IMG/VR virus record: IMGVR_UViG_3300014913_000006
Reading direction: 5' to 3' (one strand)
Source of the DNA: a virus
DNA length: 64,000 bases
The notes under the pieces were generated by a model that saw only the letters and a list, made by a program, of their open reading frames with translations, did no database searches and was not told where the DNA came from. Both the position numbers and the translations under genes were made by a program. Positions 3,410-63,455 of the stretch are shown piece after piece; the first letter of the stretch is position 1; every line of letters starts with the position of its first letter.

Positions 3410-3592
3410 CTATCCAGCAAGCTGAATCGCAACATGAGCCTCGGCTATATCATAATGCTGTGCCAATTCTGCTGCCCAGGCGGGTATCTCCCACATCCCT
3501 GTTTCGGAAAGCTGGATCAAGTTTCCACAAACCTGATCGGCCTCTTCTTCTGTCAACAGTTCCCGCTTGATGATCTTCTGCCCAGTCGTCAT
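3410..3592 (-). CDS. Small hypothetical protein, first gene after the attenuator
   Basis: GGAG RBS and ATG 3592. Confidence 0.6.
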   Translation of the reverse strand: MTTGQKIIKRELLTEEEADQVCGNLIQLSETGMWEIPAWAAELAQHYDIAEAHVAIQLAG

Positions 3593-3607
3593 GGTCCGAT
3601 ACTCCAC

Positions 3608-21514: not shown

Positions 21515-21523
21515 TTTTTCCTC

Positions 21524-24915: not shown

Positions 24916-24953
24916 AGCACCCCCAGGAAAAAAGACCTTTCATCAGCTACTAG

Positions 24954-25007
24954 ATTATACACCAGAATGTAAAATAAAAGGCTGGGAACCACAATGTGCC
25001 CCAGCCT
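24954..25007 (-). terminator. Intrinsic terminator immediately followed by class B promoter GGTGTATAAT (24954-24963)
   Basis: AGGCTGGGGCAC-ATT-GTGGTTCCCAGCCT-TTTATTTT, then TGGTGTATAAT. Confidence 0.7.
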
Positions 25008-25039
25008 AGCTGAATATTGTTCTGTAAACGACGTGTTGG

Positions 25040-26290
25040 TTATTTAAGGATATTCCGTATAGTGGTATCGCTGACCTCGTACATTCTAGACAGTTCGGAA
25101 ACGGTCACCCCAACAGTAGCCAACCTTCGTACCCTATCCCTTTCTTGTCTAGCCTTACTCTCAACAGATTTCTTCCGGTTGCCTGGCGTAACGTTATTCT
25201 CTCGCAGGATTTTGTATAAAGTGCTACTGGCAATTCCATATCTATCGCATATTACCCTAATTGTTTCTCCACGTATATATGCCCCCAAAACACCGGACTT
25301 AGTTTCCTCGGGAATTTCAAATCTCTCTTTGTTGTAGAAGCTCGTGCTCCTCCTAGCTTGACCTATTGCCAGAAACCTAGCACGGACAAAGGACAACGAT
25401 TTACCGAAATGCTTGGAAATGCGTTGACATGACCACCCCCGATCGTGTAGGGCTAATAATTCCTCATCCCTAATCCCGTTATGCATATGTAACCTCTTGT
25501 GTATGTCTGCTGTTACGGTCATCCCGTTGTCAATGTCCCAAAACTGCTCGAACGATTGCGACAGTTCGAACAATTGATCACAATCAACTATAGGATTAAG
25601 TTCCGAATATCCCTTTAAGAATGTGTTGAAAATCTTGGAAAAACCAGCAGGATAATGGTGTACTTCCAGCCTTCCAGTATCTCCGGTAACCCTACACTTA
25701 TAATCGTCTCTCTCCATACACGCCCTGCGCCAATATTCAGCCTTCTCACAATGGCGAATTCTCTCGTGCAACCTAGTAATACCACCCTTATATGATTTAA
25801 CCCTTGCACCCTTATGCTCCGGGGCGATGCCATTTTTCTTCAGGATGTCGGCTATCGTAGTTTTATGCACCCTATAATCCCTAGCAATATCTGCACAACT
25901 CTCGTTTTTATTAGCCTGGTAGCGGTCGCAAATGACTTGATGATCTGATACAGGAATCTTACGGACAGCCTTGGCTACTTCAGTTTTTCTGTCTCGCATT
26001 TGAACACCATTCTTAGACAATCTTCCCCACACCGATGGCGAACTCATTCCGTGTTTTTGGGCGATATCGGAAATAGACATTTCCAAGTCTTCGTATTCGT
26101 GTCGTATCGTTTCAAAATCGATTTTTTGATGAGATTCCCCACACGACCTAATAATCACTCCAGCTTCTCTTAGACGAGTTATTAGTGTTTGAACTGAACA
26201 CCCTACTGCTTTAGACACTTCTGGAGTTCCTTTGCTTTCGTCCCTATAAAGTCTGATAGCCTTTTCTATGTCAATTTGCTTCTTCGCCAT
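25040..26290 (-). CDS. Multi-HTH HNH homing endonuclease
   Basis: Several HTH repeats flanking WRRACMERDDYKC...LEVHH...NGMT...HKRLH. Confidence 0.75.
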   Translation of the reverse strand: MAKKQIDIEKAIRLYRDESKGTPEVSKAVGCSVQTLITRLREAGVIIRSCGESHQKIDFETIRHEYEDLEMSISDIAQKHGMSSPSVWGRLSKNGVQMRDRKTEVAKAVRKIPVSDHQVICDRYQANKNESCADIARDYRVHKTTIADILKKNGIAPEHKGARVKSYKGGITRLHERIRHCEKAEYWRRACMERDDYKCRVTGDTGRLEVHHYPAGFSKIFNTFLKGYSELNPIVDCDQLFELSQSFEQFWDIDNGMTVTADIHKRLHMHNGIRDEELLALHDRGWSCQRISKHFGKSLSFVRARFLAIGQARRSTSFYNKERFEIPEETKSGVLGAYIRGETIRVICDRYGIASSTLYKILRENNVTPGNRKKSVESKARQERDRVRRLATVGVTVSELSRMYEVSDTTIRNILK

Positions 26291-36400: not shown

Positions 36401-36793
36401 AGCTTGACGTAAACCAGCACCAACGATAACGATCTTGGCACCTGGGTCCAACAACGCCCTTAGAACTGCATACACGGCCAGCATAAAGGACTTACTACCA
36501 CCACGACAGGCGATCAGCATTGGGAACGGAGTGTTCCACATCATCTGAAGCGTAGCGATCTGGATAGGAAACAGATCAAGCCCTAAGACCACCTTCGCTG
36601 TCCAGCCAATGTAGTTGATATCGAGCATCCTGCTGACGACTACCTGATCCAGCGGGTCTTTGGATTGCTTCAAATCCGTGAAAATGTGTTTGCGCACTGT
36701 TGGCACACGATCACGGTATGGGAACAGATACCCATATCGGCCTTGATCTGAATGCAATAAATCGTGTAATATTGTTTGTTGTTTTTTATTCAT
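33431..36793 (-). CDS. terL: Terminase large subunit containing an intein
   Basis: Walker A-like ACRGGSKSF, Walker B IRGFRANVVIADEF, MEYGA.F, nuclease MGVDPA and KDRYTA. Confidence 0.9.
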   Translation of the reverse strand: MNKKQQTILHDLLHSDQGRYGYLFPYRDRVPTVRKHIFTDLKQSKDPLDQVVVSRMLDINYIGWTAKVVLGLDLFPIQIATLQMMWNTPFPMLIACRGGSKSFMLAVYAVLRALLDPGAKIVIVGAGLRQARLVFNYIDTIWTNAPVLRNIVGGGKKAGPRQNVDLCYFRIGDSIIYALPMGDGCASKDTLTLYGDGFGTLADDQPLFQSAKNIVDRERLVWGNKEFRLSDESYCNGTSKTKKIKTHHGFEFNATHNHRLKVVRNKCVVWVQMDEIKIGDRILLDRSVRWHNGNGEISESEAYGIGLLTGGGCFIAQNGYRLGFATQDTELAEAIQAVGPFKQSSDIVHWNMYGHKKIDAIFRRFDIDVDHLKTKDKQFPSTILKSPRNITSAFISGLFDTDGHVQVTTERGGTQIGVTFYNTSRELVRQLQYILLHYGIVAHVKSRKRDEKWEECYELSITGRDVLIFATEIGFRLKRKQDKLLAGIEKKKRWMDQNDNIPDVLDDMIDISENNRAEHGTSNCVSVCAGGLKVKKSVSRPLVDNFLRVYGHIDDSRIDTVRCLADPDVYYDEIVSIEDDECVAFDVHVPDGHEYCANGFYSHNTKIRGFRANVVIADEFASIPEDVFDVVVRGFAATAKTPVEEAKKLAFEKQLAKLDLPAGEKKRLTTDDDKMRGNQIVYSGTAYYAFNHFAKRYQMWKEIIASKGDPEKVAQIFGGENLVPDGFNHRDYSIIRIPHTHLPEGLLDQRQLAHAKATLPRNIYLMEYGAVFVKDSDGFYPRSLIEACTVGPNKPITTPDGAVTFTPLMRAQSKRKYVMGVDPAAERDNLAITMTEVWPNHYRVVYCWAVNKKEFMKRKKRGLITDDDYYAYCCARIREVVRLFSPVRIEMDSQGGGYAVAEMLRNKKLMNMDEGDFPIYEVIDFDEPKETDGETDGRHILHLVKQSTEYNQDANIALHKSLETRTLLFPAFDSVKMYAAIEAEKSAGVIFDTFEENVFNLEELKNELCTIQMSETATGRERFDTPQVVKVGAVEGRARKGRLLKDRYTALLLSHKYIYNTEIATPDDIDYEDVAGNIEKRKKSPKNEAMYRGAGVGRMRNAHETRQGGVFKAVKKGKRI
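34982..36241 (-). mobile_element. Intein (420 aa) with LAGLIDADG endonuclease
   Basis: GDG|CASKDT ... ATHNH (block B) ... FISGLFDTDG ... FDVHVPDGHEYCANGFYSHN|T; lower GC than the exteins. Confidence 0.92.
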
Positions 36794-37190
36794 ATCGAAT
36801 ATCCAACCTATCTTTTTTAACATACCTGTTACACGCCAGACACAAAAGAGATAAATTGTTGAGATCAAAAAGCGTTGCCAACTGTTCACGAGATAATGCT
36901 GACGAAATTGGTATAAACCGATGTTCGTAGTTACCTAATTTTGTAGACCGCCTCTTTCTAACCCATTCGTTTTTCTTCTTCTTATATGAATCTGTCGAAT
37001 GATTGATTTTCTGATGTTGTCGCCGACACAGCAAACATTCCGGTTTCCCAGAAGGGTTGATATAAAATTCTGTTATCCCATGATGTCTACAAAGCATTAA
37101 AGCTCTCTTGTCATCAATCTTACGAATGATCGCTTTTTTGGGTTGACCAGGGGTAATATTCGTACTGAGATCATATCTCTTAGCACCCAA
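36786..37190 (-). pseudogene. HNH endonuclease with an in-frame internal deletion
   Basis: Aligns with 12380/29480 but jumps from LGNYEHR to FIPISSA, losing the CxxC...IDH segment. Confidence 0.7.
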
Positions 37191-41975: not shown

Positions 41976-42109
41976 ATTATACACAATTGCGTCCGACACC
42001 TAACGTCCGATAAAAACGTCCCTCCATATATATAGAGAGTCCATTTTCGGAAAAGCGCTCCAACTTTTTTTCTTTTTTTTCGAACAGACCCCCTAGCTAG
42101 ACGTATAAT
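41976..42109. promoter_or_regulatory. Divergent promoter region: class B leftward (41976-41985), class A rightward CGAAC-N18-TATAAT (42081-42109)
   Basis: Strand switch point; also contains one TTATCGGAC (minus strand, 42005-42013). Confidence 0.7.
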
Positions 42110-47885: not shown

Positions 47886-48799
47886 CTCAGGAAAACGAAC
47901 TGAATCACGCACTCGATAACCCAGACCTTCTTATCATAGCTGGGTCTCGACTGTACGGAACAAGCACCCCAGAGAGCGACCACGATTATCGTGGTTTCGT
48001 AGTCCCCCCTTTTGAATATCTCGCTGGCCTTGGTAGATTCGAGCACCGAGTCATCCGAGAACCCGACACAGTAATCTACTCACTCCAGCGATTCATTGAG
48101 CTACTCATCATGGGAGACCCTGTTTGTTACGAAATCCTATTCGCCCCCGAAGCCAATATCATCGAGCGTACCGCAATAGGTGTCGCTTTGCTTCGCAGCC
48201 GAGAACTGTTCGCCTGCAAACGGTTCGCCCGTCGCATAAGTGGATATGCCCAATCAGAATGGCGCAAGGTCGCTGGAACGCAACTGGTCCCGGTCAAACG
48301 CACCCCAAACGAAAGCGAAGTTGTGGAGGATATCCGTGCAGTCTTCCATCCGCAGAAAGAAGAAATGGATGAGGTCATCCGCCTACTCTTCCTACAGCAT
48401 CCAAGGGAGACCCGACCGGCCAGACGCAAACTGGGAGCGAAGCGTAAGGCTCAGATTGAACGCTATGGCTATTGTACGTCTAGCGCGTGTCATACCATCC
48501 GCCTTCTGGGACAGCTAAGAGAACTCATGCAAACAGGCAAACTCACGTTCCCTCGACCCCAGGCAAAGCTACTCTCGATGATCAAGCGTGGAGAGCTATC
48601 ATTAGACCGGGTGGTAGAGCTATATGAAGATGCCAAAACGAGAGCGGATCGGGCAATAGAAAATACTGATCTACCAACGAACGCACCCATCAAACAGATA
48701 CGAACCATATACCACGAGATTGTAGCCCACTCCATACGTTGCGACCAACGCTTCGTGGACTACGCTGAAGGGTATGGGGAACGATGGGAAAGGTGGTAG
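47882..48799 (+). CDS. Pol-beta-type nucleotidyltransferase (Nuc-transf / YcgL-like)
   Basis: GSRLYGTSTPESDHDYRG, GYA..., HTIRLL, LL.MIKRG. Confidence 0.85.
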   Translation: MTQENELNHALDNPDLLIIAGSRLYGTSTPESDHDYRGFVVPPFEYLAGLGRFEHRVIREPDTVIYSLQRFIELLIMGDPVCYEILFAPEANIIERTAIGVALLRSRELFACKRFARRISGYAQSEWRKVAGTQLVPVKRTPNESEVVEDIRAVFHPQKEEMDEVIRLLFLQHPRETRPARRKLGAKRKAQIERYGYCTSSACHTIRLLGQLRELMQTGKLTFPRPQAKLLSMIKRGELSLDRVVELYEDAKTRADRAIENTDLPTNAPIKQIRTIYHEIVAHSIRCDQRFVDYAEGYGERWERW

Positions 48800-48800
48800 T

Positions 48801-49859
48801 ATGGCTGATCTAGTGAACCAAAAATTTGGTAAATTAACAGTTATCAAATCATCAGGACGCAACAAACATGGGAATAAACTGTGGTTATGTAAATGTGACT
48901 GTGGCGAGACCATAGTTGTTCGTGGCTCCAGTTTACTAGCAGGCCAAAAGGGTTGTAAGTGTCTTATGAGAGAAGCTGGTAAACGCACCAGTCAGATAAA
49001 TGTCCGACACGGACATAGCCGTCGTGATCACAAGTCCAGGGTATATGGTATTTGGGAAGAAATGACTGCAAGATGCAACAACCCAGACAGAAAAGCCTAT
49101 GATCATTATGGTGGACGTGGAATATCTATTTGTGAACGATGGAAAAAATTCGAAAATTTCTTGACCGACATGGGCGAACCACCCAGCGATAAACATACAT
49201 TAGAACGGATTGACAATAATAGGGACTATCAACCAGACAATTGCATCTGGGCAACTCGGAAACAACAGGCGAGAAATACTTCAAGAAACAGATTGATTAC
49301 TTTCAACAACAAGACTCAGTGCTTATCGGCTTGGGCCGAAGAATATGGTCTATCACCAGCCACTTTGTACAAACGAATAGTTGCACTGGATTGGCCGATA
49401 AAAGAGGCTTTTACTGCACCACCAAACAGCACGAAATCACTTGTACAATGTGCTTGGTGTGGCACTAAATTCCTGAAACCACGCAAAAGAATAACACAAA
49501 CACTCAAACAACAAAGACAGCACGCCTGCTCTCGCTCCTGCGCATCCAAACTGACCAACGAGGAACGCCGCTGTGAACCGACCACGGTCAACGCAGCCCA
49601 CACTCGCAAGGACAAGGAAAAGTTCCCTGAGAAAGCCCACGCACGCTACCTTGTGCGTCAGGCTGTGAAAACGGGCAAACTCGTTCCATTAGAAGAATGC
49701 GAGTTCTGCGACTCTGACAACCATGTTGAGGCCCACCACCCGGATCATTCTCGACCGTTTTTTTTACTGTATCTCTGTAAGGACTGCCACTCGGACGCAG
49801 ATGACTCAATCGACAAGTGGGAGAACCTAGCTACCGACTACTCAGGGTGTATAACATGA
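48801..49859 (+). CDS. HNH homing endonuclease, multi-domain
   Basis: KFGKLTV..WLCKCDCG, YGGRGISICERW, TLERIDNN.DY.PDNC.WAT; second CxxC..EAHH.DHS...LCKDCH domain. Confidence 0.85.
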   Translation: MADLVNQKFGKLTVIKSSGRNKHGNKLWLCKCDCGETIVVRGSSLLAGQKGCKCLMREAGKRTSQINVRHGHSRRDHKSRVYGIWEEMTARCNNPDRKAYDHYGGRGISICERWKKFENFLTDMGEPPSDKHTLERIDNNRDYQPDNCIWATRKQQARNTSRNRLITFNNKTQCLSAWAEEYGLSPATLYKRIVALDWPIKEAFTAPPNSTKSLVQCAWCGTKFLKPRKRITQTLKQQRQHACSRSCASKLTNEERRCEPTTVNAAHTRKDKEKFPEKAHARYLVRQAVKTGKLVPLEECEFCDSDNHVEAHHPDHSRPFFLLYLCKDCHSDADDSIDKWENLATDYSGCIT

Positions 49860-49898: not shown

Positions 49899-50492
49899 AT
49901 GAAAGAGTCATTGCTGTTCAAGCTGGAAAAGGTGGTATTCCGCTTTATCGGGGATATCAAGTGGGCTGGAGTCTTGCATCCGTTTTGGTTCATCATCAAT
50001 GGTGTGTCGTTCCGTCTGAAAGGAAAACACTACCGCGATCTGGAAAAAGTGATCCAACCTGGAGACATCCTCATCCGTCGATTCGAAGGATATATCGACA
50101 AGTGGTTGATTCCGGGCTGGTGGAATCACGCAGGCATGTACGTGGGGGAACTTGATGGCAAGGACCACAAGGTTGTCCATGCTATCAGCGACGGGGTCGT
50201 TGTAGACGATCTGATTGACTTCATGCGTACCGACCATATGATTGTCCTGAGAGCCCCAGAGGCGGGCCGTGAAGAGGCTATCAAGCGAGCCAAGGCCGCG
50301 ATAGGTAGCGATTACGACTTCGCCTTCGATTTCAACGAGACACTGAGGTTCAGTTGTACTGAACTGGTAAGTCACTGTTATCCAGGGATCATCACCGGTA
50401 AGAGGCGATTCGGTCGCATTACGGTGGTTGCTGACGACATCGTTGGTGCTCCTGCCCTGGAGGTGGTGTGGGACTCAAGAAAGGACGGCTAA
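49899..50492 (+). CDS. Permuted papain-like (YiiX/YebB NlpC/P60) amidase
   Basis: PGDILI, WNHAGMY, YDFAF...FSCTELV. Confidence 0.85.
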   Translation: MKESLLFKLEKVVFRFIGDIKWAGVLHPFWFIINGVSFRLKGKHYRDLEKVIQPGDILIRRFEGYIDKWLIPGWWNHAGMYVGELDGKDHKVVHAISDGVVVDDLIDFMRTDHMIVLRAPEAGREEAIKRAKAAIGSDYDFAFDFNETLRFSCTELVSHCYPGIITGKRRFGRITVVADDIVGAPALEVVWDSRKDG

Positions 50493-50495
50493 GCC

Positions 50496-50801
50496 ATGGA
50501 CGAGGACACGTTCAACAAGAAACTAAGGGAATTGATCCGTGAGATCGCAAGTCCACCGGCAGACAAACAAAAGCAGCTAGCTCCGCTGGTGGAAGAAACA
50601 AAATCGCGTCACAATGAGATCAAAGAAAACGTTGACAAGGTTACGAAGTCGCTTAGCGACCTGCGAATCTGTATCAAGTATCTGTTGTTTGATCTTGAGG
50701 CTACAAGGCGAGAACGAGATCGGCTGAAGAATATCGTGGACAATCAACCACCGAAAGACGCCGACGACGACGAGCCAAACAAGGCAGAGGGTGAGATGTA
50801 G
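50496..50801 (+). CDS. Homolog of a conserved planctomycete coiled-coil protein
   Basis: LR..IKYLLFDLEATRRE signature, recalled from planctomycete proteins; not verified by search. Confidence 0.7.
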   Translation: MDEDTFNKKLRELIREIASPPADKQKQLAPLVEETKSRHNEIKENVDKVTKSLSDLRICIKYLLFDLEATRRERDRLKNIVDNQPPKDADDDEPNKAEGEM

Positions 50802-50988
50802 TGGTTGAAGATTGGCTTAGGCTATTCTGGCAAGAAGTGAAGAAGATGTTCTGTTTCTGGCGGAAGTAACATCATGAACAACAGACGGTGGGTTATCGTA
50901 GGCATCCTTGCCTTTCTCGCTTTGTGTGTAGCGTTTGGCAACAAACAACGTTTACACTATCTGTACGAGACCCATATCTCCCCCATGA

Positions 50989-51417
50989 TTACTCCGGTTC
51001 AAACGAATTCAAACCACACTGATGGGGATCGAACTGACGAGTCTCCCCTTCCTTATACGGCAATCGGTATTGAGCAAGATTCAAGGGGGCAAGATCAAGC
51101 TCTTTCCCGTTTGTGTCTAGGATTATTTCATATGCTTGATTTCCTATTGCAAACGACACAAACACTTCTACATTAGCACCCAATGAGTCTCTCCATCCTG
51201 GTAGTAAAACAATACCTTTGCATGAACTAATAATTGCTGTCAAATCTAAAACCATACAATCAGCAAATGACGACAGAGAAGAGGTTTCTTCACTTTCTGC
51301 CGGATTCCATACAGTAAAACCATTTTTTCTCAATATTTTTGCAGCTAACATAAACATTGGTCTATTCAAATCTTTATACCCCCTCATACCCCCAGCCAAA
51401 TAAAAGTCATAAACCAT
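50989..51417 (-). CDS. DUF4406 (nucleoside deoxyribosyltransferase-like) protein
   Basis: YLAGGMRG...N.P.F, WNPAE, LLPGWRDSLGANVE. Confidence 0.85.
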   Translation of the reverse strand: MVYDFYLAGGMRGYKDLNRPMFMLAAKILRKNGFTVWNPAESEETSSLSSFADCMVLDLTAIISSCKGIVLLPGWRDSLGANVEVFVSFAIGNQAYEIILDTNGKELDLAPLNLAQYRLPYKEGETRQFDPHQCGLNSFEPE

Positions 51418-51598
51418 GTTTCATACATCCACAACTTCTTGTATGACCATTTTTGATGTTATAACCCAAAGCCTCTATCTTTTTGCCACATTCACAAGAG
51501 CATAACCACCTAACTCTTTTGCCAGACATGGTTTTGGCCCTAGACAAAACAGTAAGTAACCCGAATCTTTTACCAGTTAAATCTATCAAACTAGACAT
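51407..51598 (-). pseudogene. Truncated homing endonuclease N-terminus
   Basis: IDLTGKRFGLLTV...WLCSCECG...TRSCGC, then stop. Confidence 0.75.
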
Positions 51599-51609
51599 GC
51601 AGAATCCCC

Positions 51610-52407
51610 CTATTGATATTCTTGCCATTCCTTCTCGGCCACGACGCTAGCGCACCGAACAATAGTTCCCATGTCGCAGTCGTACAAACCAGCGCAACTA
51701 AAACTGTTAATCTCAAGCAGATACATTTTGCCATCCGACTCAGCAATGTCTACTGTATAACACAGATCAGGTTGCCACTCTTGCGATGCTACTAACTCGG
51801 CTAGACGAAAAGATGAGGGCGGGTAATTGGGTGACTCATCTGGGAGATACCTGCACCCAGCTACAACCTCTCTGTCGCAGATAACGAAACGCCACTCGGC
51901 ACCGACGGGCTTCTCTGGAGCGACAACAATTAGCATTTCTGGACCAACCGCTCGTACTAGCGTTTGGATTTTGTGCTTCTCATCTGGTGCGACTACATAT
52001 CCAGTGAAGGGTTTGGCACCACTGTCTGGTCGCAAGAACCATGATTGACCTGGCGATTGTTTCGTGAGCTTGTCCCATTTTCTCAATAGGTCGCCGACTG
52101 GCATCATGCTATATTGCTGGTTAAGTAAGTGCCCACCGAGATATGCGTAATAAGTGCTACATTTCATGTTGTTGAAATTACACCAAGCACCCGGAATGAA
52201 TGGTGCCCGTTGATAGACTTGTCGCACAAAATCGATGTCGCCATAACAGACAATGCAATCATGGGGATCATACCCGTCGAAGTCAACCTGAGACCCAAGC
52301 TTGTGTTCGATCTCCCGGACCTTCATGTCTTGCTTAAAAACTTCGGCAATCATTGGCCCAGTGTTTACACCTTCCATGTCTATTTGTATCATCCAGTCTG
52401 GTCTCAT
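51610..52407 (-). CDS. ATP-grasp protein (R2K / DUF4343-like)
   Basis: FLRPDSGAKPFTG, EWRFVI, TVDIA...LLEINSFSCAGLY. Confidence 0.85.
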   Translation of the reverse strand: MRPDWMIQIDMEGVNTGPMIAEVFKQDMKVREIEHKLGSQVDFDGYDPHDCIVCYGDIDFVRQVYQRAPFIPGAWCNFNNMKCSTYYAYLGGHLLNQQYSMMPVGDLLRKWDKLTKQSPGQSWFLRPDSGAKPFTGYVVAPDEKHKIQTLVRAVGPEMLIVVAPEKPVGAEWRFVICDREVVAGCRYLPDESPNYPPSSFRLAELVASQEWQPDLCYTVDIAESDGKMYLLEINSFSCAGLYDCDMGTIVRCASVVAEKEWQEYQ

Positions 52408-52655
52408 GCAAACACCTCATCCAGTATTAGTCGAATCGCATTAGCTCGTGCGTTCCTGGCGGCAGTCTCTTGGTCGTCGCCCCTGCTACGATAGAAATAA
52501 TACAGATCAAATACGATGTTCCTATCCTTCATTGATTGTTCACACACCTCTTTTCCGTCCAGCGGCGAATACCGACACATTCGCTCAACTCGAAAACACA
52601 AGTCCATCACAATCTGGTTTGCTTTACGCCTTGGGTCTACATCTTCTGGAGCCAT
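52404..52655 (-). CDS. Hypothetical protein
   Basis: Coupled ORF. Confidence 0.5.
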   Translation of the reverse strand: MAPEDVDPRRKANQIVMDLCFRVERMCRYSPLDGKEVCEQSMKDRNIVFDLYYFYRSRGDDQETAARNARANAIRLILDEVFA

Positions 52656-52790
52656 GTCAAAAGTCGTCCCTGTATATCCACCGTATCAACATCACGACCA
52701 GCACATCCGGGATGGTAAACGGCATAATGCAGATCAACAGCAAGAGAATGGGCAGATCACTCATTATAACTCATGCCCCCATCTAGATTG

Positions 52791-53744
52791 CTACTCCCCT
52801 TTGACTTCACCGTTTTCGATGATCACCTGACACTCCTTCCCCTTCGATACCCGCTCCAGCCAAATCTGGGCGTCAGCATCTTCGGCCATCTTAGCACTCG
52901 GCGACCTCGATTGTTCGCATAACCCAATCAACTCTAAGTTGATCGCATCGTATGCCTTGTTCTCTCTGACCTTGAGATTGAGACCCTCGGCGTCAGACAT
53001 CTGAGCATGAATAGCTTCCGCATCAACTTCTTCAACTCCATCAAGAGCTTTTTGCTTCTGCTTTACACTCTTCTTCAGTGTAGCAACAAGCTTCTCCAAT
53101 CGTTGAAGTTCTGTCACCTCAGATAACAGCGCATCGCGATCGCGCATGATTCGTTGATTGTGCTCAATAGCTTCGGCATATTTGGCACCTAGCCCTTGAA
53201 TTGATACTTCCTTGTCTGGTACGCCATCATGCTTGGCCATAGAATCAAGCTTAGCCTTGGTTTCTTTGCCGCAACGATTGACACCAGTTCTGGCACTGAA
53301 CAGGTGTTTGTATCGGGCATTAACTTCGTCGAAGTTCAAGCCAACTAATTGCTTGAGAACTTCGGCTTGTAGCTTGGCATTCATCTTAGGAAATTCTAAT
53401 GGATCAAAAGTCAATTCACCTACTAGTTTATCCAGCATGGCCTGGGGAGAAGCAAATGTTGCACCATCTTTGTTTTTGACAACGAGATTAGTACCGTTAG
53501 CAGTAAAGGTACGTGTTACTATAATGTCACCCATGTCTAGGACAACGCGAGCCTTCTCCTGTCCGGTCCTAATAGGTTTGGCGGGGATAGCACCAGCACC
53601 ATTCAGAGCATACTCGATAGAATCCAACACACAAGTTTTGCCCTGAGCATTATCTCCACCGATAACGATCAACGAACCATCAGGTTTGATACAGACGGCT
53701 TGTAGATGCTTTACGTTTTCTGACTCAAGTGCGACTATCTTCGT
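52791..53744 (-). pseudogene. SMC/RecN-like ATPase with a mutated start and an internal deletion
   Basis: ACG in place of ATG before KIVALESENVK; Walker A GDNAQGKT; the coiled coil jumps directly to AEDADAQIWLERV, with no signature or Walker B motif. Confidence 0.7.
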
Positions 53745-53996: not shown

Positions 53997-55767
53997 TGTA
54001 TCGCCTCGAACGGAACCGCATCAAACCCAGTGGGAGCAACATGCCAACGACTGTCAGACCGCCGAAAGCACCACATGGACCAGCGCCGCCACCGGGTGCC
54101 TCTTCGACAACCTCTTCCTCTTCAGGGAAGAAACCTGTCAGGATGTCCTCAATCGAATCAGCGCCGCTTCCACAGTTGTAGACCAACACCTCAGAGTCGC
54201 CACAGGCAACGAGACAAGTGGCATCCAGGTTGTCAATGACATCACAGCCCTCTCCGTCAAGGCCGTCGATACCGTCAACACCGTCTAAACCATCCTGTCC
54301 CGGAGGCCCCTGCGGACCATCCTGGCCGTCTACACCATCGATCCCGTCAGCGCCATCAGCACCATCAGAACCATTTGATCCGTTAGAACCATTGGCACCA
54401 TCGGTCCCATCGGAGCCGTCTGCGCCGCTACCACCATCGCTGCCATCATTGCCGTCACTACCGTCGTCACCCTGGCAGTCGAGAGCGTCGAACTCTCCGT
54501 CGCCGTTGGGGTCTTCGGTATAGCCACAGATGAGAGCAATAGCGTCCGAATCGAACTCTGTGAAGGTGGTCAGATATTCCGAACAGGTGACCACAGCACC
54601 ACACTCACCGTCGTAGGTCTTAGCGGCCCGCATCGCCTTGCTCGTAGCGGGCGGGAACTCACACTCGTAATCGATGAAGAAGTCTTCTGCTACCGGACAG
54701 ACATCGTCAAACATGCTGGCCAATTGCGGGTGGCAAGCATCCTGTTCGCCATTCCCGTTCAAGTCCCAGCAGTTCAAACCATCCGCACCATCAACTCCAT
54801 CTTCACCATCGGCTCCGTCCTCACCATCGGCCCCATCCTGGCCATCTGCCCCGTCTTCGCCGTCTTCACCATCTTCGCCGCGACAGTCATAAACATCAAC
54901 CTCTCCGTCGCCATTGGTATCCTCGGTAAAGCCGTCACCCCGACAAGCTTCTGCCCACGGGAAGAAACAGCACCAGAAAGGCTTCTCGGCGTAAAAGTCC
55001 TTCTCACCGTTGCCATTCAAGTCCCAACAACTCAGACCGTCTTCACCGTCTTCGCCGTCAACGCCGTCTTCGCCATCGTGAACGATGACACTCGTGCCGT
55101 CGCCGCACTCAATTTTGTAACCACCGCAACGACGCTCACGAACCGTACAGCCTTCTCCATCCTGGCCGTCTGCGCCATCTTGACCATCGGCTCCATCCTC
55201 TCCGTTCTCACCATCGGCTCCGTCGAAGATCGAGGTGCATGTCTCACCACAGCAGATTTCGGCACCGTCTTTGATCTGGGTCACGACACAGTCGTCGCCA
55301 TCTTCGCCATCCTCACCGTCTTCTCCGTCTTCACCGGGCGGGCCTTGAGGACCAGGGATACCACAGGATACAATTTCAAGATTCACATTCTTCGTGTCCT
55401 TGTTGTTGTCGCACCCTTCCCTCTCGAATATCTTGACCTGCACATTACCGACACCCTGAGTACCAGGGGCGATAATCGTGAAGACCTCAGTGAAGGTCTT
55501 CGCTCCGTAGCCCGTATAGTGACAATCATGCTCGTAACACACACCATCGATGCTAGTGCTATTCCACTTCTGCTTGCTGTGCTGGCTGTACGAGCGGTCG
55601 CGCATCTTGACAACAACAGTGACCTCTACCTCGTCACCCGCACACGCCGTAGCGGGGTCGAGTGTTACCGACTCGATGTTGTTGTAGCTAGAACCAGATG
55701 CCTGCGCTGCATTCGGCACCATAGCTGTACAAAGACAAATCAGCAAACCTACAAGTAACTTCTTCAT
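53989..55767 (-). CDS. Secreted collagen-like surface protein with Ca-binding loops and a C-terminal CG-TM-RR sorting signal
   Basis: Signal peptide; G-x-D triplet runs; CWDLNGNGE.D and ED.NGDGE.D..DC each twice; ends GPCGAFGG-hydrophobic-RFRSRR. Confidence 0.8.
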   Translation of the reverse strand: MKKLLVGLLICLCTAMVPNAAQASGSSYNNIESVTLDPATACAGDEVEVTVVVKMRDRSYSQHSKQKWNSTSIDGVCYEHDCHYTGYGAKTFTEVFTIIAPGTQGVGNVQVKIFEREGCDNNKDTKNVNLEIVSCGIPGPQGPPGEDGEDGEDGEDGDDCVVTQIKDGAEICCGETCTSIFDGADGENGEDGADGQDGADGQDGEGCTVRERRCGGYKIECGDGTSVIVHDGEDGVDGEDGEDGLSCWDLNGNGEKDFYAEKPFWCCFFPWAEACRGDGFTEDTNGDGEVDVYDCRGEDGEDGEDGADGQDGADGEDGADGEDGVDGADGLNCWDLNGNGEQDACHPQLASMFDDVCPVAEDFFIDYECEFPPATSKAMRAAKTYDGECGAVVTCSEYLTTFTEFDSDAIALICGYTEDPNGDGEFDALDCQGDDGSDGNDGSDGGSGADGSDGTDGANGSNGSNGSDGADGADGIDGVDGQDGPQGPPGQDGLDGVDGIDGLDGEGCDVIDNLDATCLVACGDSEVLVYNCGSGADSIEDILTGFFPEEEEVVEEAPGGGAGPCGAFGGLTVVGMLLPLGLMRFRSRRYSA

Positions 55768-56625: not shown

Positions 56626-57135
56626 TCACGGCAAGTGCCCCCACGACTTGCCAAGTTTTATAGCACCGATCGTCGTATGGTCTACACCGAATCGTTTACC
56701 AAGACTACGTAGACTGTGGCCAGTAGCCAACAGCTTCTTGATCGTTATTACTTGACTTTCTGTCAATTTAGACCTACCATTCGTCTCACCCCTAACCTGT
56801 GTGCCGTGGCGTATAGCGTCGGCTGCATTTTCTCGTTGCGTACCCCACCGGAGGTTGTTGAATCGGACATTCTGTCGATCACCGTCACGATGGAGACATT
56901 GATGACCTTTGGGTCTGGGACCACAGAAAGAAAGCAGCACCAAATAATGAACACGGTAATAAGCCGTAACTCCATTCTTGACCAATCGCATTTGCGGATA
57001 TCCTTCACCATCAAGATACGTCTTCCGTATGTATCCTCTGGCTTCTGGTCTGCGATACCTACTCATAACGCGACCTTCAGATAATATCCGGTACAATCCC
57101 TCATGCCCAACAATATCTCGCCAAGTTTCTATCAT
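56626..57135 (-). CDS. NUMOD4-HNH homing endonuclease
   Basis: ETWRDIVGHEGLY, VHYLV..F.G, HRDGDRQN...NLRWGT..EN, C-terminal HTH. Confidence 0.85.
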   Translation of the reverse strand: MIETWRDIVGHEGLYRILSEGRVMSRYRRPEARGYIRKTYLDGEGYPQMRLVKNGVTAYYRVHYLVLLSFCGPRPKGHQCLHRDGDRQNVRFNNLRWGTQRENAADAIRHGTQVRGETNGRSKLTESQVITIKKLLATGHSLRSLGKRFGVDHTTIGAIKLGKSWGHLP

Positions 57136-57142
57136 AACGACA

Positions 57143-57376
57143 CTACCATCCCTTGAGGGATTTGATGGCCCTAGCAATGGCAATCACCCTATCAGCCTCT
57201 ATACCACGTTGTAGTTTACTCACACCGAAACCGACTTTCGCTTGACCCTTCGTTATCGGGATGGTGGCTTTCATCTGAATCGTCAATTGTTCCACAGCCG
57301 CCTCAAGCTGATCCAACAATTCAGGATTGCCGATCACGCCCTCTTCTTTGAAAATCGGTGCCTTAGCCGCAGCCAT
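57143..57376 (-). CDS. Hypothetical protein
   Basis: GGAG RBS. Confidence 0.55.
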   Translation of the reverse strand: MAAAKAPIFKEEGVIGNPELLDQLEAAVEQLTIQMKATIPITKGQAKVGFGVSKLQRGIEADRVIAIARAIKSLKGW

Positions 57377-58502: not shown

Positions 58503-59222
58503 CTACTTCGCATTGGGACACCCCGGCCAGTGATAGCTTTGCGCGGCAGCGGCCATGTCTATGAGATACCACTTACCCTCTTTCTCAGACCAGAGCCAGT
58601 CGATGGACCATTCTTCACCAAGCTCTCCCCCGACTTCGCTGCTGAGTCCCGATAACAGACTGACTTCATCTTCATCCTCGACGTTGATTGCAGCCAGAAG
58701 CTCTTCCCAGTTGAAGGGCTCGTTGCCTCGCAAGAATGCTTCTCGTGGCCAGTAAGGGTGATGACACACCACTGTTGCGTCACGCACGAAATACCGACGC
58801 TCTTTGACAATCGGCATATCACCCGGAAAGGCAATGAACGCAGCCAGGGTCGGCAGAAGATTCCTTACAACCCAACAGTCGGTCGGGAAGCCCATCATGT
58901 CTGCCATAGCACTCTCTTCAACCAGACGAAAGACGTGGTCGCTGACATCGGTCGATGCGGGTATGTGGCAGGTGTTCTTCCAGTTGTGCTTACCACTCAG
59001 GTAGTCCGTTCGCAGAAACATCGGCCATCCAAGTTTGTAGCCAGCCTGGGTGATGTCCGCAATCAGAATGTCGAAGCCCTCTGGGATTTTGCCGTCCAGG
59101 AGGTTGATCAGGTCTTCCCCGGTATACGGAATGATCGTGGTCTCTGGTGTCGAGATATGCGACGGCAGCTTCGGGTACCAGTACGAAAGCCGGTTGCGGT
59201 CTTCAGGGCGTCCTCTGTTCAT
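58503..59222 (-). CDS. Second ATP-grasp-like (R2K / D123-like) protein
   Basis: PMFLRTDYLSGKH.W, ERRYFV, HHPYWP, WSIDW...WYLIDM. Confidence 0.7.
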   Translation of the reverse strand: MNRGRPEDRNRLSYWYPKLPSHISTPETTIIPYTGEDLINLLDGKIPEGFDILIADITQAGYKLGWPMFLRTDYLSGKHNWKNTCHIPASTDVSDHVFRLVEESAMADMMGFPTDCWVVRNLLPTLAAFIAFPGDMPIVKERRYFVRDATVVCHHPYWPREAFLRGNEPFNWEELLAAINVEDEDEVSLLSGLSSEVGGELGEEWSIDWLWSEKEGKWYLIDMAAAAQSYHWPGCPNAK

Positions 59223-59234
59223 GTTTTCTTCCAA

Positions 59235-59305
59235 AGCCGGGAGCGGGTATCGAACCCATTGGGTATCAGCGTCCTGACCCCTAGCCGCCAGTTGGTTCTC
59301 CCGGC
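59235..59305 (-). ncRNA. 71-nt tRNA-like RNA lacking an anticodon loop
   Basis: GCCGGGAG/CTCCCGGC acceptor; D-like AACTGGC loop; GGGGTCAG-GACG-CTGATACCC hairpin; TGGG-TTCGATA-CCCG T arm. Confidence 0.65.
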
Positions 59306-59365
59306 AAGACACAAAAGGGCAATGGTTGTGCATCGCTCATGAGAGCAGACGTAGACTGCTATCTT

Positions 59366-59394: not shown

Positions 59395-59830
59395 ACCCAT
59401 CTCCGATTTTTTTTCAGGTGAAGGGCTGTCCGATAAGGCGGTTGATGCAGGTGCTCAGAAAAGGGGGGACCCCTGTTGTTGCCTAAAAGGCGGGGGTTGA
59501 AGTGGGTGTCAACTGTGCGGCATAAGGGTGAAGGACAAGGCGAGTGGTGCAAAGAAGAGTGTACACGAAAAGTGGGAACCAGTTGATTTTTCGAGCCTAC
59601 TATGACTAAGCCCCCATGCGTTATCGGACCCACCCCAGTTATCGGACCATTCTATTTATCGGGCGTAGCCCTCCAGGCCGAGTTATCGGACCTCCCACCC
59701 ACCAAACTTATCGGACCAACACACCTGATCCAATCCTGAAAAAATTATCGGATGCATGTGTTATAGGTCTATGCTCTTGCATGACATGCAAGGCAAGTTA
59801 TCGGACCCAAAAGATTCCTGTGCTTCCCCC

Positions 59831-59859
59831 TTGCTATCGTGTCGAACGTATCCTATACT
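59831..59859 (+). promoter_or_regulatory. sigma70-type promoter TTGCTA-N17-TATACT
   Basis: Canonical spacing; followed by an RBS and the ORF at 59902. Confidence 0.65.
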
Positions 59860-59901
59860 CTATTAGAACGAACGAACGAAACACAACGAAAGGAACGAAC
59901 G

Positions 59902-60063
59902 ATGAATTATCAGACGCTACTCGACAATACGATGCACTGGCTGTTCTCCGACCCTATGCACGCGGTGTGTGTTGTGGCTGGAATTGCTGTGCTAGGTGCG
60001 ATAAACGGGGTCCGCCTCAGCTTGAAACGTTGCAAAGGTCCGTATAACGGACGCATCCTGTAG
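59902..60063 (+). CDS. Small membrane protein (putative early gene)
   Basis: AAGGA RBS; one TM helix. Confidence 0.55.
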   Translation: MNYQTLLDNTMHWLFSDPMHAVCVVAGIAVLGAINGVRLSLKRCKGPYNGRIL

Positions 60064-60096
60064 GGTACGATAACCACCAGAACAAGGGGCGATAAC

Positions 60097-60333
60097 ATGA
60101 ACATGACACTCATCAAGTATCGGACCACCGAAACGCCCCATAATCAGTACGCTGTAGTGCCAACGATATGGGTATCGGACCTACTCCACTGGCTCACGTT
60201 ATCGGAATTAGCAGAGATTATCTCGACCGATAATAACTGTGACGATGGAGCTATCCTTCCGATAACATGGCCGAGTTATGAGACGTGCCGTGAGTGTATG
60301 AGAATATCGGACGTAGTGGCCTTGTGCCGATAA
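60097..60333 (+). CDS. Small hypothetical protein
   Basis: AGGGG RBS; motif-rich sequence. Confidence 0.45.
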   Translation: MNMTLIKYRTTETPHNQYAVVPTIWVSDLLHWLTLSELAEIISTDNNCDDGAILPITWPSYETCRECMRISDVVALCR

Positions 60334-60566
60334 TAAGGAGAACGCCATGTATGGTAAAGCTACGCTTGACATCCCAGCGGTTGGAGATATCGGACACTCA
60401 CACACAGAAGGACTATCGGACCTACCAAGACCAACAACGATACGGATAATATCGGACCATGCTCGGCTCGTTATCGGACCTTGGGCCGTGAGGCGTGTTA
60501 TGGGACGTGCGAGGTGAGTTTGTTATAGGGCGTTCCTTTTTTTCTGAAGATTGTTGGTTATGGGAC

Positions 60567-60595
60567 TTGACTTCTGGTCGCATGTATGCTATAAT
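60567..60595 (+). promoter_or_regulatory. sigma70 promoter TTGACT-N17-TATAAT
   Basis: Near-consensus with extended TG. Confidence 0.85.
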
Positions 60596-60620
60596 ATAGT
60601 GTACACGAAAGGAGACAATT

Positions 60621-60965
60621 ATGGGACCATTCGATGATCTCGGACCATACGCCGAAACTACGATAACGACAAGGAAAACGGACGCTGACAAGGCGACCGA
60701 TAATGAATCCCATTTCGGTCATCTTGTTATCGGAACCTTGTTGCTTGGTCCAGCATTATGGGTCGTTGTGTTTATGGGACTATTCTGCTGGAAGTATATC
60801 GGACCTCTCTCCGCTGCCGGTCTTATCGGACTAGGCTTCTGGGCGTGCGGACATTATGGGACTAACAGGTCGGTTCTGGACCGCTTCCGTTATCGGACCA
60901 CCAAGGCGCAGCGAGAGACAATCCAGCGCAGATTATCGGACATCAAAGATTCTGGAAGAAAGTAG
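60621..60965 (+). CDS. Membrane protein with 2 TM helices (putative early gene)
   Basis: AAGGAG RBS. Confidence 0.65.
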   Translation: MGPFDDLGPYAETTITTRKTDADKATDNESHFGHLVIGTLLLGPALWVVVFMGLFCWKYIGPLSAAGLIGLGFWACGHYGTNRSVLDRFRYRTTKAQRETIQRRLSDIKDSGRK

Positions 60966-60975
60966 GTTATCGGGT

Positions 60976-61004
60976 TTGACTTTTGGTCGTGCCGATGGTA
61001 TAAT
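60976..61004 (+). promoter_or_regulatory. sigma70 promoter TTGACT-N17-TATAAT
   Basis: Near-identical to 60567, including the downstream ATAGTGTA. Confidence 0.85.
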
Positions 61005-61054
61005 ATAGTGTAGGCGAAAACGAACGATTCTCGAACCTTTATGGGAGATTCACG

Positions 61055-61420
61055 ATGCAGAAAGTTATCGGACAGACGGGCACGAGTGTGCTATCGGACG
61101 AGAAAATCCAGTATAAGCTGGCGAGAAAGCGGACGGTCCGATATTGGTACATGAAGTGCCAGCATGGTTATCGGGCCGAGGTGGTTGGGCCATTTCACAG
61201 CGAACTTTATGGGGCGTGTGGTTTTGGGACCAAGAAGACTTCGGCTAAAGCCGCACTTGAACGGAACCTTGCCAACAACCAAGGTTATATCGGACGCTTG
61301 TTGTTCACGACCGTAGATGAAGCCGATAATGTTGGTCGTGTCGATCCAAGGTTATTGGACGAGAATGCGACATCACGACCGATAAGCAACGGCGAACTTA
61401 TCGGAAGCGCTGGGCAGTAG
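61055..61420 (+). CDS. Hypothetical protein (putative early gene)
   Basis: GGGAG RBS; 121 aa. Confidence 0.7.
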   Translation: MQKVIGQTGTSVLSDEKIQYKLARKRTVRYWYMKCQHGYRAEVVGPFHSELYGACGFGTKKTSAKAALERNLANNQGYIGRLLFTTVDEADNVGRVDPRLLDENATSRPISNGELIGSAGQ

Positions 61421-62186
61421 GTTCTCGGACGTAGGGCGGGGTGGGGTTTTCGGACCTTGCCCCGCTCGGTGGAGTGTGAGTTATGAGACTCTGGCGACTA
61501 TCGGACGAACAATGGTTTTGGCGCAAGACTGTATTTCTTGCGGTTCTGATAACCATAGCAATATGGTAGGAGTGATAACATGGCACGTTACCGGACCACA
61601 GCCAGGACCATCTGCCGTTATCGGACCTTGGGCCGTGAGGATATTATGGGACTTGTGCGATAACGTTTACCCTGTGTGTGTTCTAGTACATGGATTATCA
61701 CTCTGGTCCGGGAATATCGAATGTGAGTTTTTTGCGTGACATTATGGGACGTTATCGGACCTTCACCTCGGTCGGACGTTCCGAATTATCGGACGTTCCG
61801 CCGTGGGCGATTATGGGACGGGTCCGGGAACTAGTTTGGTGCGTGTGATAATATGGCCGTTTTTGAGCACGAGAACGCGGTTTTCGGGTTCTGGGACGTG
61901 CAGATTATCGGAAAGGGTAGATAATATCCCGGTTTTCGGCGTTTTCGCGGGTTATCGGACCAAAAGCGGCGCGAGTTATGAGACTCGCGTAACGTGTTTT
62001 ATCGGAACATCCGGTAATGTAGCGGTTTGGGGCGGATTGTGCGAGTTTTTATCGGCGAACGACCGATATGTGATCTCAGAAAACGGACGTAATCGCGACT
62101 TCGATATTATCGGGCGTTGCCTATAATATGTGCGTTTTTGGGCGATCAGGCGGGAAGTTATCGGCAAAAAATTCTGAGAATGAGTG

Positions 62187-62215
62187 TTGACGACTTGTAT
62201 AACTAACGGTATAAT
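62187..62215 (+). promoter_or_regulatory. sigma70 promoter TTGACG-N17-TATAAT
   Basis: Near-consensus; drives the structured leader, the 62441 ORF and probably the large ncRNA. Confidence 0.85.
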
Positions 62216-62440
62216 CTAATGTAGGACGAAACGATAACACAACGAAAAGAACGGACCGAAACGGTCCGCGTGTGTTATTGGACGCAAACCGACGCGGTTA
62301 TCACAACCGCCGATAATTAGTGGCCTGCGCAATGTAGGTCCGAATATGAGTTTCAGTACGAGTTCACTACTTGTCCGTCCGATAGTCTGGACGGTGTAGT
62401 CGTGGATTATCGGGCGGGCTTTGTCTCTGGGGAGATGATT

Positions 62441-62755
62441 ATGAGTCAGTCTGATAATGCTGGAACGTCGGTCGAGTTTGGTGCGAAGCAACTCCAGGCC
62501 AATGCTGCTGTCTACCATGGCGCGAAGCGGATCGTCGATGCCGCGTCTGGTTTCGACAGTCTCGATGACGCCGTCGCTGCGCTCACGGAAGCGTGGGAAG
62601 TCTTGGAGGCGCAGGTCGAGTCGGGCGCGGGATACACGCCCGATAGGGAGTTGGGCTTCGGGTCTGATAACGCCGCCGTGATTGCCGAGTCGATTCTCGG
62701 TCGTCGCAACAGCGTCGGCGCTACTCGCAGGGCGTTCAACAACATGGGCAAGTAG
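62441..62755 (+). CDS. Hypothetical helical protein
   Basis: GGGGAG RBS; strongly biased codons. Confidence 0.7.
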   Translation: MSQSDNAGTSVEFGAKQLQANAAVYHGAKRIVDAASGFDSLDDAVAALTEAWEVLEAQVESGAGYTPDRELGFGSDNAAVIAESILGRRNSVGATRRAFNNMGK

Positions 62756-62804
62756 TCTGCGGAGTGTCTGCCGCACCGCGCCCCTATCTTATGGGGCGTG
62801 GACC

Positions 62805-63455
62805 GATGGACATTCAGATGTAAAGTCTGGATTGAACCGCTTGGCTAGGACAACCTAGTCGTTATAGGCACCCAATATAGTGTCAGCGGTTCCCATAACC
62901 AATCACAGCGGGTGGTCCGTTAATCGCGCGACTATTCCCGGACGGGATTGGGTAGTAGTCCGATAGTCTGCCCAAGTAGGGTCTGTCGAGCGCGCAGGAT
63001 GTGCGTCTAGGGTCTGAACGGGGGTAACAGTTATCGGTCGAACTCCAGTCTTAGAGGCGACAAAACGCAGAGCCCCAGTCGTGGGCTCGGTCTGCGCCGT
63101 CAAAGCGTGGGCGGGATAAGTGGCGAATCGTCTGCACGATTCCTTGTATGTCTGGCAGGAACCCGATTCAGTGTCGGGTCGCAAGACAGAAAGGGCAGGT
63201 CGTGTTGACTATTCTACGGTTCGTCATGGTAATCCGTCTTCGTTGGTGTAGGCTCAAAAGGTTATTGTCGTGGGATAGGCATTTCCAGTAGCAAGTCTAG
63301 TTGATTTCGTCGCAACGATTTCTTTCGTAAAGGTCTGAAACGTCATTGCTGGTGGCGCTAGGGTCGGCGGGTTGGATAGCGGCGCGATCCCGATTTGCTG
63401 GTTAGGTCTTAGTCTGAGGCGCGCAACGGGTATTGCAGTCTCGGTCTTTGCTACC
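62805..63455 (+). ncRNA. Large structured ncRNA, GOLLD/ROOL-like
   Basis: No credible ORF; at least 10 helices; GCAA tetraloops; AGTA/GAA E-loop-like motifs; CTCAAAAGG and a 3' TCTCRGTCTT, which I recall from GOLLD-type phage RNAs. Confidence 0.6.

Follow-up and report, generated by a model that had tools for sequence, protein, structure and literature searches.

A dense polar array of a dif XerC-arm word in the early region of an uncultured tailed phage

The motif field and the early genes it covers

The DNA considered here is a 64,000-nucleotide stretch of IMG/VR virus record IMGVR_UViG_3300014913_000006 (all of which we call the window), and the element of interest is a field of dozens of copies of a short asymmetric word that lies between positions 59426 and 63041. 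The window (48.9% GC) is part of a very divergent tailed phage with a large terminase that carries an HNH insert, a portal protein and a tail fibre; the source phage is uncultured, its genome is about 170 kb long and its habitat is sediment or hydrothermal vent. Genes are on the - strand to the left of position 59333 and on the + strand to the right of 59600, and the field, which starts at the minimum of the window's cumulative GC skew (58922), covers four rightward promoters of the sigma70 type and a series of small open reading frames (ORFs).

The exact word TTATCGGAC is present 16 times in the window, compared with a shuffle expectation of 0.37 and a shuffle maximum of 2; 14 of the copies are on the + strand within 59621-61960, and the two on the - strand are at 59428 and 42005. 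Eight copies of a second form, TTATGGGAC, lie on the + strand inside the field, the window total for TTATSGGAC is 25 (about 1 expected), and VTAT[C/G]GGAC accounts for ten further + strand copies inside the field. A weight matrix iterated on the field has the consensus (G)TTAT[C/G]GGAC(C/G), with no information content upstream of the motif, and at a site threshold of at least 11 bits it finds 69 sites in 59426-63029 versus only 10 across the remaining 60 kb of the window. Spacing of the sites is irregular (median 37 bp, range 10-382 bp), their density is about one per 45 bp, and no tandem-repeat or low-complexity structure was found in the field. Fifty-four of the 69 sites are on the + strand and 15 on the - strand (binomial p = 2.6e-6). 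Coding bias was considered as the cause of this polarity and rejected, since the reverse word contains a stop codon in one of three frames, which predicts a ratio of about 3:2 where 54:15 is observed. The field and the copies that lie apart from its dense part are as follows:

59426..63041, + strand: whole motif field, 69 sites of at least 11 bits, densest at 59619-62417
59428..59436, - strand: lone exact copy, left of the strand switch and upstream of the leftward operon (gene 58503-59333)
42005..42013, - strand: isolated exact copy in the window's second divergent region
3592..3604, - strand: isolated one-mismatch copy, GAGTATCGGACCA (variant GTATCGGAC), 14.5 bits
3830-3838, + strand: copy of TTATGGGAC outside the field

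At 42005 the copy overlaps the -35 zone of TGTATAAT, a leftward promoter that has an extended -10 and, in its spacer, a partial copy, TGTCGGAC; both the 42005 copy and the one at 59428 have the same orientation as their leftward operons. A second word, GATAAYATG, which includes the TTATC half of the motif in reverse complement, has four copies in the window (60091, 60261, 61574 and 61847), always on the + strand and inside the field; one of these ends in the start codon of the conserved 78-amino acid (aa) gene listed below (ATG at 60097).

A sequence-only reading of this DNA had first drawn attention to the field, and our recount agrees with its 14 exact + strand copies in 59621-61960, its eight copies of the second variant, its ten VTATCGGAC-type copies, the irregular spacing and mostly + orientation, the exact copy found elsewhere only at 42005 (on the - strand) and the variant near 3593. 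It had also named two circumstances that would empty the field of meaning, equal abundance of the word genome-wide and a low-complexity assembly artefact, and neither holds. Only 10 sites lie in the other 60 kb and the field is not of low complexity (above); furthermore, an identical 5 kb is present in one contig each of two runs, and identical pieces are present in two hydrothermal-vent runs from other studies, so with independent runs containing the same sequence the field is not an assembly artefact.

Three of the four rightward promoters in the field match the sigma70-type consensus at 11/12 positions, and two of these three have an extended -10. Together with the small genes they are arranged as follows (G and L numbers, here and below, are our handles for genomes and for loci or contigs; percentages refer to the orthologues):

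59831..59859, + strand: promoter P1, TTGCTA-17-TATACT, 9/12, followed by a GAAC-repeat leader at 59866-59902
59902..60063, + strand: gene for a 53-aa protein with a hydrophobic stretch that suggests a membrane segment; orthologue in G003 (47%)
60097..60333, + strand: gene for a 78-aa protein; orthologues in L126 (44%) and L122 (60%)
60347..60517, + strand: 56-aa ORF with five motif copies in two frames
60567..60595, + strand: promoter P2, TTGACT-17-TGnTATAAT, 11/12, its -35 abutted by TTATGGGAC at 60558-60566
60621..60965, + strand: gene for a 114-aa protein with hydrophobic stretches that suggest membrane segments; orthologues in G003 (47%) and L123 (36%)
60976..61004, + strand: promoter P3, TTGACT-17-TGnTATAAT, 11/12, its -35 abutted by the variant TTATCGGGT at 60967-60975
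61055..61420, + strand: gene for a conserved early protein of 121 aa; orthologues in L123 (58%), G003 (55%), L102 (45%) and L147 (32%)
62187..62215, + strand: promoter P4, TTGACG-17-TATAAT, 11/12, followed by a perfect hairpin, CGGACCGAAACGGTCCG, at 62252-62268
62441..62755, + strand: gene for a conserved protein of about 105 aa, almost motif-free, at the right edge of the dense field

The link to sigma70 promoters that the sequence-only reading had proposed is thus borne out: the word abuts the -35 of two of the 11/12 promoters and overlaps the -35 zone at 42005. Five small ORFs of the field are real genes as judged by their orthologues in relatives, for which the overall identity range is given as 44-60%; the coding status of the 56-aa ORF is uncertain because only its first 25 residues match G003. 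The 26 + strand sites that lie within the five conserved ORFs are divided 9/9/8 among the three reading frames, giving peptides such as YRT, VSD, LSE, SYET and ISD in the 78-aa gene, and the 114-aa gene alone holds about ten copies. Use of all three frames in genes that are conserved in relatives means, as the earlier reading had argued, that selection is on the nucleic acid and not on the peptides. When the genes are aligned, certain copies keep their position (4/4 genomes have the LSD close to the start of the 121-aa protein) and others are lineage-specific.

The ORFs of the field contain no Pfam domains, and Pfam likewise finds no helix-turn-helix (HTH) repressor adjoining the field and no Rep-like domain in the neighbouring ORFs. 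There is no Rfam match. The predicted structure of the 121-aa protein has a mean pLDDT of 61, and its fold matches, to dsRBD- or HicA-like proteins, are all non-significant. The leaders of all four promoters contain ACGAA/GAAC-rich runs (59866-59902, 60600-60615, 61010-61025 and 62222-62250), that of P1 being an eightfold GAAC repeat.

The field in relatives and arrays of the word in unrelated phages

The field has no real match in 50,697 phage records by megablast or word-11 blastn, and the only match of the portal protein is to that of Clostridium phage Amboise (27% identity). Portal relatives were found at 69 IMG/VR loci, on contigs of up to 160-181 kb. A genome-wide map of the word and a search for analogous arrays, both of which the sequence-only reading had proposed as checks, gave these results: there is one field per genome, at the GC-skew switch, in relatives from this clade, and there are arrays in unrelated groups of phages.

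Within the clade, five complete or near-complete genomes each have the exact 9-mer in one field of 2.5-4 kb with near-perfect polarity and in only 1-4 copies elsewhere, and a sixth (G025) shows the same single-field pattern. These six genomes are 160-181 kb long, 93-100% complete and 37-49% GC. Synteny is kept: 20-28 kb separate the field from the portal gene, and the two have opposite orientations. The word is retained in G003 at 36.8% GC, where the global cumulative GC-skew minimum (49883) coincides with the left edge of the field (50061-53449). Site numbers are about 90 for L123 plus L126, about 42 for L102 and about 35 for L147. The distant relative G021 has neither the field nor the recombinase that is described below.

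Outside the clade, an IMG/VR pair scan for the word (in which by our estimate two-copy matches are mostly at chance level) gave at least six copies of the 7-mer core TATCGGA in 47 of 118 loci. The multi-copy loci fall into at least five gene-content groups with essentially no proteins in common, and all-against-all BLAST and phmmer comparison of seven genomes found no protein family common to all array-bearing genomes. Arrays smaller than the field are thus carried by at least four groups of unrelated phages. They have 10-25 sites, mostly in non-coding gaps among small genes, and their orientation is mixed, often as adjacent clusters that face opposite ways; in groups B and C they are paired clusters of opposite orientation. 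The 49-kb genome G011 has its array at the GC-skew minimum (2219), and in the T7-like G008 the array directly follows the gene for a T7-type large terminase, in the zone where T7-like genomes have their junction and early promoters. Four contigs (L130, G022, G023 and L164) end within arrays. Array-bearing genomes range from 37 to 59% GC, and an identical word over such a range points to a conserved reader. The mixed-orientation arrays in non-coding gaps exclude an RNA-level role in those groups, and because of them an array for protein binding at the DNA level is the best reading. A comparable pair scan of bacterial genomes, again with two-copy matches mostly at chance level by our estimate, gave at least six copies at only 14 of 120 loci, several of which are plain 9- or 12-bp tandem repeats.

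Some further observations concern these loci. Strictly periodic head-to-tail arrays with units of 14 bp (GGTTATCGGACCAT) or 23 bp are present at L164 4-330, L207 966-1020 and G023 6-199, often at contig ends. In G010 (L446 14930-15070) about five direct repeats of about 30 bp, with the core GGCAACCCACCGTTT, lie beside a TTATCGGAC array and have an iteron-like look. A PF18909 protein (dATP/dGTP diphosphohydrolase N-terminal) is encoded by 9 of the 10 complete array-bearing genomes, which otherwise belong to unrelated groups (G003 132747-133178, G007 24898-26109, G010 71522-72268, G011 12611-13228 and G013 25151-25828, and also G001, G002, G004 and G005). It was rejected as reader of the arrays, not being a DNA binder, and since PurZ (PF00709) is absent these are not Z-genome phages. 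A DUF4326 protein fused to a YspA-type SLOG domain is encoded at 2583-3221 (- strand) of the window, and DUF4326 proteins are also found in other array-bearing groups (G013 54416-54820; G010 2664-2987 and 21363-21797), the G013 copy adjoining its array. The large terminase ORF of the window (33431-36889, - strand, 1152 aa) has its HNH-endonuclease match at residues 425-527, between terminase-like segments, and judging from this arrangement the insert could be an intein or an inserted homing endonuclease. Free-standing genes that resemble HNH/NUMOD4/HTH homing endonucleases are present at 56626-57183 (- strand), 48774-49859 (+ strand) and 25040-26290 (- strand), one of them 2 kb to the left of the field.

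The word and the XerC arm of dif

The motif is the reverse complement of A[C/T]GTCCGATAA, which is a genuine XerC arm of the chromosomal site dif in several phyla. Published dif sites read ACGTCCGATAA-TATGGA-TTATGGTAACT in Anaeromyxobacter and AGGTCCGATAA-N6-TTATGTAAACT in Myxococcus, and the same arm reads GTCCCATAA in Geobacter and Desulfovibrio (PMC2731167). The reverse complements of these XerC arms are TTATCGGACGT (Anaeromyxobacter), TTATCGGACCT (Myxococcus) and TTATGGGAC (Geobacter and Desulfovibrio), and these three are the commonest forms in the field, TTATGGGAC being its second variant. Judged over the 11 bp of an arm, the core 9-mer and the commonest 11-mer forms are identical to genuine arms.

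Is this arm in general use? A scan of 185,579 species genomes for GTCCGATAA-N6-TTATG found at least 122 sites, and among the matches listed 54 of 122 run on into the XerD-arm consensus, versus about 2 by chance; Planctomycetota and Corynebacterium have recurrent variants of their own among these matches. An unbiased sample of dif sites, picked by their XerD arm, shows that the XerC arm differs from lineage to lineage, with TTATCGGAC (5 of 119) among the recurrent sequences.

Only this one arm is present in the field. The whole window has no ATAA-N6-8-TTAT pair with good arms, that is, no full dif-like site, and TTATG[TG][AT]AA (the XerD arm) is absent from the field. With no XerD arm and no inverted partner, the field is therefore a binding array and not a recombination site. 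Three weak full dif-like sites do occur within the arrays of G007, G010 and G013, and they could be chance. The word shares only TTATC with the DnaA box, which was rejected as its identity since the CACA part that defines DnaA boxes is absent. Apart from the dif table in PMC2731167, a literature search with the motif strings found little but primers. The sequence-only reading, which had proposed a cooperative protein-binding array and listed origin iterons and a partition centromere among its forms, was therefore partly right: a binding array at the DNA level is upheld as the best reading, iterons fit poorly and a partition centromere is disfavoured (below), and the resemblance to a Xer-type half-site (the XerC arm of dif) and the sharing of the word by unrelated phages had been missed.

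Candidate readers, possible functions and known systems

Each of the six clade genomes with a field encodes exactly one Xer-like protein, about 295 aa long, with the catalytic residues present by eye; it scores 231 bits with the XerD model and 229 bits with the XerC model, both below the equivalog cut-offs. Within the clade it is the sole candidate for the reader. No conserved dif-like site lies beside its gene (L428 1438-2322, - strand, in the reference copy). The ORFs around that gene appear by eye to encode a ClpP-type protease, a sigma-factor (region 4) protein and a ThyX thymidylate synthase (L428 280-3260; G001 about 124.9-127.9 kb). In the other groups, neither a tyrosine recombinase nor a SAM-like core-binding domain was found in ten array-bearing contigs, of which five are at least 92% complete; with no common protein family either, the reader in those phages must be a host protein or one that has diverged beyond detection. 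A conserved host protein, kept to one specificity by what it does in the cell, would explain why one word is found across unrelated phages, and XerC, on the evidence of the arm sequence, would be the one candidate for a shared reader with matching specificity.

Our preferred reading, which we hold tentatively, is that the roughly 70 asymmetric putative sites of the field form a polar array, recognised at the level of the DNA by a protein of the Xer type (tyrosine-recombinase family). A Xer-type reader of some kind has, in our judgement, not quite an even chance, and any single function for it a lower one. The reader would be the Xer-like recombinase of the clade, host XerC, or both, and it would use the sites for binding and not for recombination, because each site has only a XerC-type arm and lacks the partner arm. 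The sites begin at the point of strand divergence and follow the direction of early transcription across the small early genes and four strong promoters of the host type. Occupancy of the array would most likely turn the early host-takeover units down or off, by promoter occlusion together with orientation-dependent roadblocks in the manner of the mycobacteriophage L5 repressor at its stoperators; the asymmetric sites, their co-orientation, the copies at promoters and the packing into early units match L5 stoperator logic, and for this reason control of early transcription is the function that we favour. A wider proposal, which we consider quite unlikely as a whole, is that unrelated phage lineages use a Xer protein without recombination: arrays of XerC-type half-sites would recruit host XerC or, in this jumbo-phage clade, a Xer paralogue of the phage, and the directional nucleoprotein barrier so formed across the early region would shut early genes off on schedule, or else would halt SMC-type complexes or similar translocases on the phage DNA or unload them from it.

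Several facts weigh against a Xer-type reader. The position of the field at the GC-skew minimum fits a replication origin equally well, and the outer two flank positions, which vary little among dif arms, are under weak constraint in the field. The gene for the Xer-like protein is about 100 kb from the field in the relatives that have it and falls outside our 64-kb window, so that we infer its presence in the window's own genome. Its closest bacterial homologue is no more than 32% identical and hence gives no clue to the host. In the E. coli system the binding of XerC to isolated arms is weak. Another common XerC arm, TTATGCGAA, occurs among the matches listed mostly as plain tandem repeats, with at most three array-like loci; XerC arms vary by lineage and yet arrays of this one are few, so the principle does not obviously generalise. 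A possible parallel is seen in two phage contigs of 44-48 kb, which have 15-bp periodic arrays of (G)TTATGCGAA(C) at L586 911-1196 and L651 1695-1875.

The strongest rival to a Xer-type reader, somewhat unlikely in our estimate, is some other sequence-specific protein, either a small fast-evolving phage protein or another host factor, for which the sites would be origin iterons or early-gene operators and the identity with a XerC arm a coincidence. It would fit the onset of the field exactly at the cumulative GC-skew minimum in the window (58922) and in G003 (49883), with G011 (2219) behaving alike, and it would fit the unconserved outer flank positions and, among the matches listed, the rarity of phage arrays of another XerC arm; moreover, in G010 a second family of direct repeats of about 30 bp (GGCAACCCACC...) adjoins one array, as at iteron origins. 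It is opposed by the identity of the 9-mer across array-bearing genomes that have no common family, since drift would be expected both in a reader encoded by the phage and in its site, and by the very low probability that a random 9-mer would match a recurrent XerC arm with its TTAT inner end in register. There is also no adjacent Rep-type gene, and the sites are irregularly spaced inside genes. A classical iteron origin in particular fits poorly, the core being 9-11 bp and not a regularly phased repeat of 17-22 bp, and a partition centromere (parS/parC) is disfavoured in that neither ParB_N nor ParA (AAA_31) has a match in the five complete clade genomes.

A Xer-type reader could also serve a purpose other than early transcription: the array would be a polar block to DNA translocases, whether SMC/condensin-type complexes or FtsK-like motors, or a zone where they are unloaded, similar to the XDS sites of Bacillus subtilis. 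We regard this as a serious alternative by analogy, if a distinctly improbable one. Xer half-sites that work without recombination have precedent, an artificial XDS array being reported to block SMC translocation (PMC11840125, citing Karaboja 2021; PMC12322038); FtsK stops at XerCD-dif (PMC2800217), and phages do target SMC complexes (T7 gp5.9 inhibits MukBEF; PMC7617805). Strong polarity and high copy number would suit a directional barrier. On the other side, XDS are XerD arms in the chromosome terminus, where here a XerC-type arm lies at an origin-like switch, the clade has no ParB, and loading of SMC on these phages would be an analogy alone.

It is less probable still that the field marks a genome end, or is a packaging or DNA-entry signal at a concatemer junction or first-entering end, like the SRL/SRR arrays of T7. 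The place of the G008 array directly after the terminase gene, the contigs that break within arrays and the paired opposite clusters of groups B and C (all above) are what such a signal might produce. Breaks at repeats are expected anyway, however, and in the clade 23 kb separate the field from the terminase gene, with six contigs having the field in their interior; what look like 'terminal repeats' in complete contigs are assembly overlaps of 99-144 bp, and unrelated terminases would not have one recognition word in common. A motif of early transcripts, UUAUCGGAC, acting as an RNA-level target of a nuclease or RNA-binding protein or as a sponge, would account for the co-orientation of clade copies with transcription (54 to 15), but we think it highly improbable, given the mixed-orientation clusters of the other groups in non-coding gaps crossed by single-strand gene blocks, the copies that lie upstream of promoters and are hence untranscribed, and the lack of an Rfam match. 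Least probable of all is a host 'self' word like Chi, KOPS or an uptake sequence that phages have copied: being short, polar and common to unrelated phages would suit it, but the 9-mer is at control frequency and unpolar in five complete bacterial chromosomes (which may not be those of hosts), two of which have the same dif arm, and one copy per 45 bp far exceeds any known use of Chi or KOPS.

A 9-base word that is forced into small early genes in all frames, retained at 37-49% GC and common to unrelated phages implies that a strong protein-DNA interaction, without a described counterpart, is widespread at the onset of infection; we found no description of dense polar Xer half-site arrays in phages in the literature. 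Should XerC or a Xer paralogue prove to be the reader, virus-host conflict would join the roles that Xer proteins have without recombination (XDS, SMC unloading), and in uncultured phages the word would be a simple means of marking early regions by sequence, and perhaps also of indicating host range.

How does the field compare with systems that are already known? Its likeness to dif is direct, the word with its flanks, TTATCGGAC(G/C)T, being the exact reverse complement of real XerC arms from Myxococcota, Planctomycetota, Acidobacteriota, Sphingomonadales, Thermodesulfobacteriota and others (a comparison that includes the dif-like attP of IMEX elements). It differs from dif in having no XerD arm or inverted partner across a central region of 6-8 bp, and in being present in about 70 copies in a phage early region at a GC-skew minimum, where dif is a single site at a terminus-like maximum. 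XDS are sites where XerD, bound to dif-like half-sites, unloads Smc-ScpAB in the terminus of Bacillus subtilis, according to Karaboja 2021 as cited in PMC11840125. Both are isolated Xer half-sites for binding, and XDS arrays act as barriers; XDS are a small number of XerD arms on the chromosome, close to its terminus, whereas the field has XerC-type arms in dozens of polar copies in an early or origin-like region of a phage.

The SRL/SRR arrays, short repeats beside the terminal repeat of T7, were reportedly described by Dunn and Studier in 1983. Like the field they consist of irregularly spaced copies of a 7-9 bp word that adjoin strong early host-type promoters; about 12 non-coding copies flank a defined terminal repeat there, whereas the copies of the field run through genes. 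The stoperators of mycobacteriophage L5 are about 13 bp long, with about 30 sites genome-wide that are mostly intergenic and are bound in lysogeny by an HTH repressor of the phage. Stoperators of L5 and the Cluster A phages, with gp71 as the repressor, are said to go back to Brown et al. in 1997. Both they and the sites of the field are short and asymmetric, many are co-oriented within transcription units, and in both a copy lies at the -35 region of an early promoter; the field differs in having about 70 sites in 3.6 kb, mostly intragenic, with a word that is common to unrelated phages and no HTH repressor beside it in Pfam searches. The element is thus closest to the known polar arrays of binding sites, stoperators and XDS, and differs from each of them in a defining feature, and there is a substantial chance that it represents a new mechanism.

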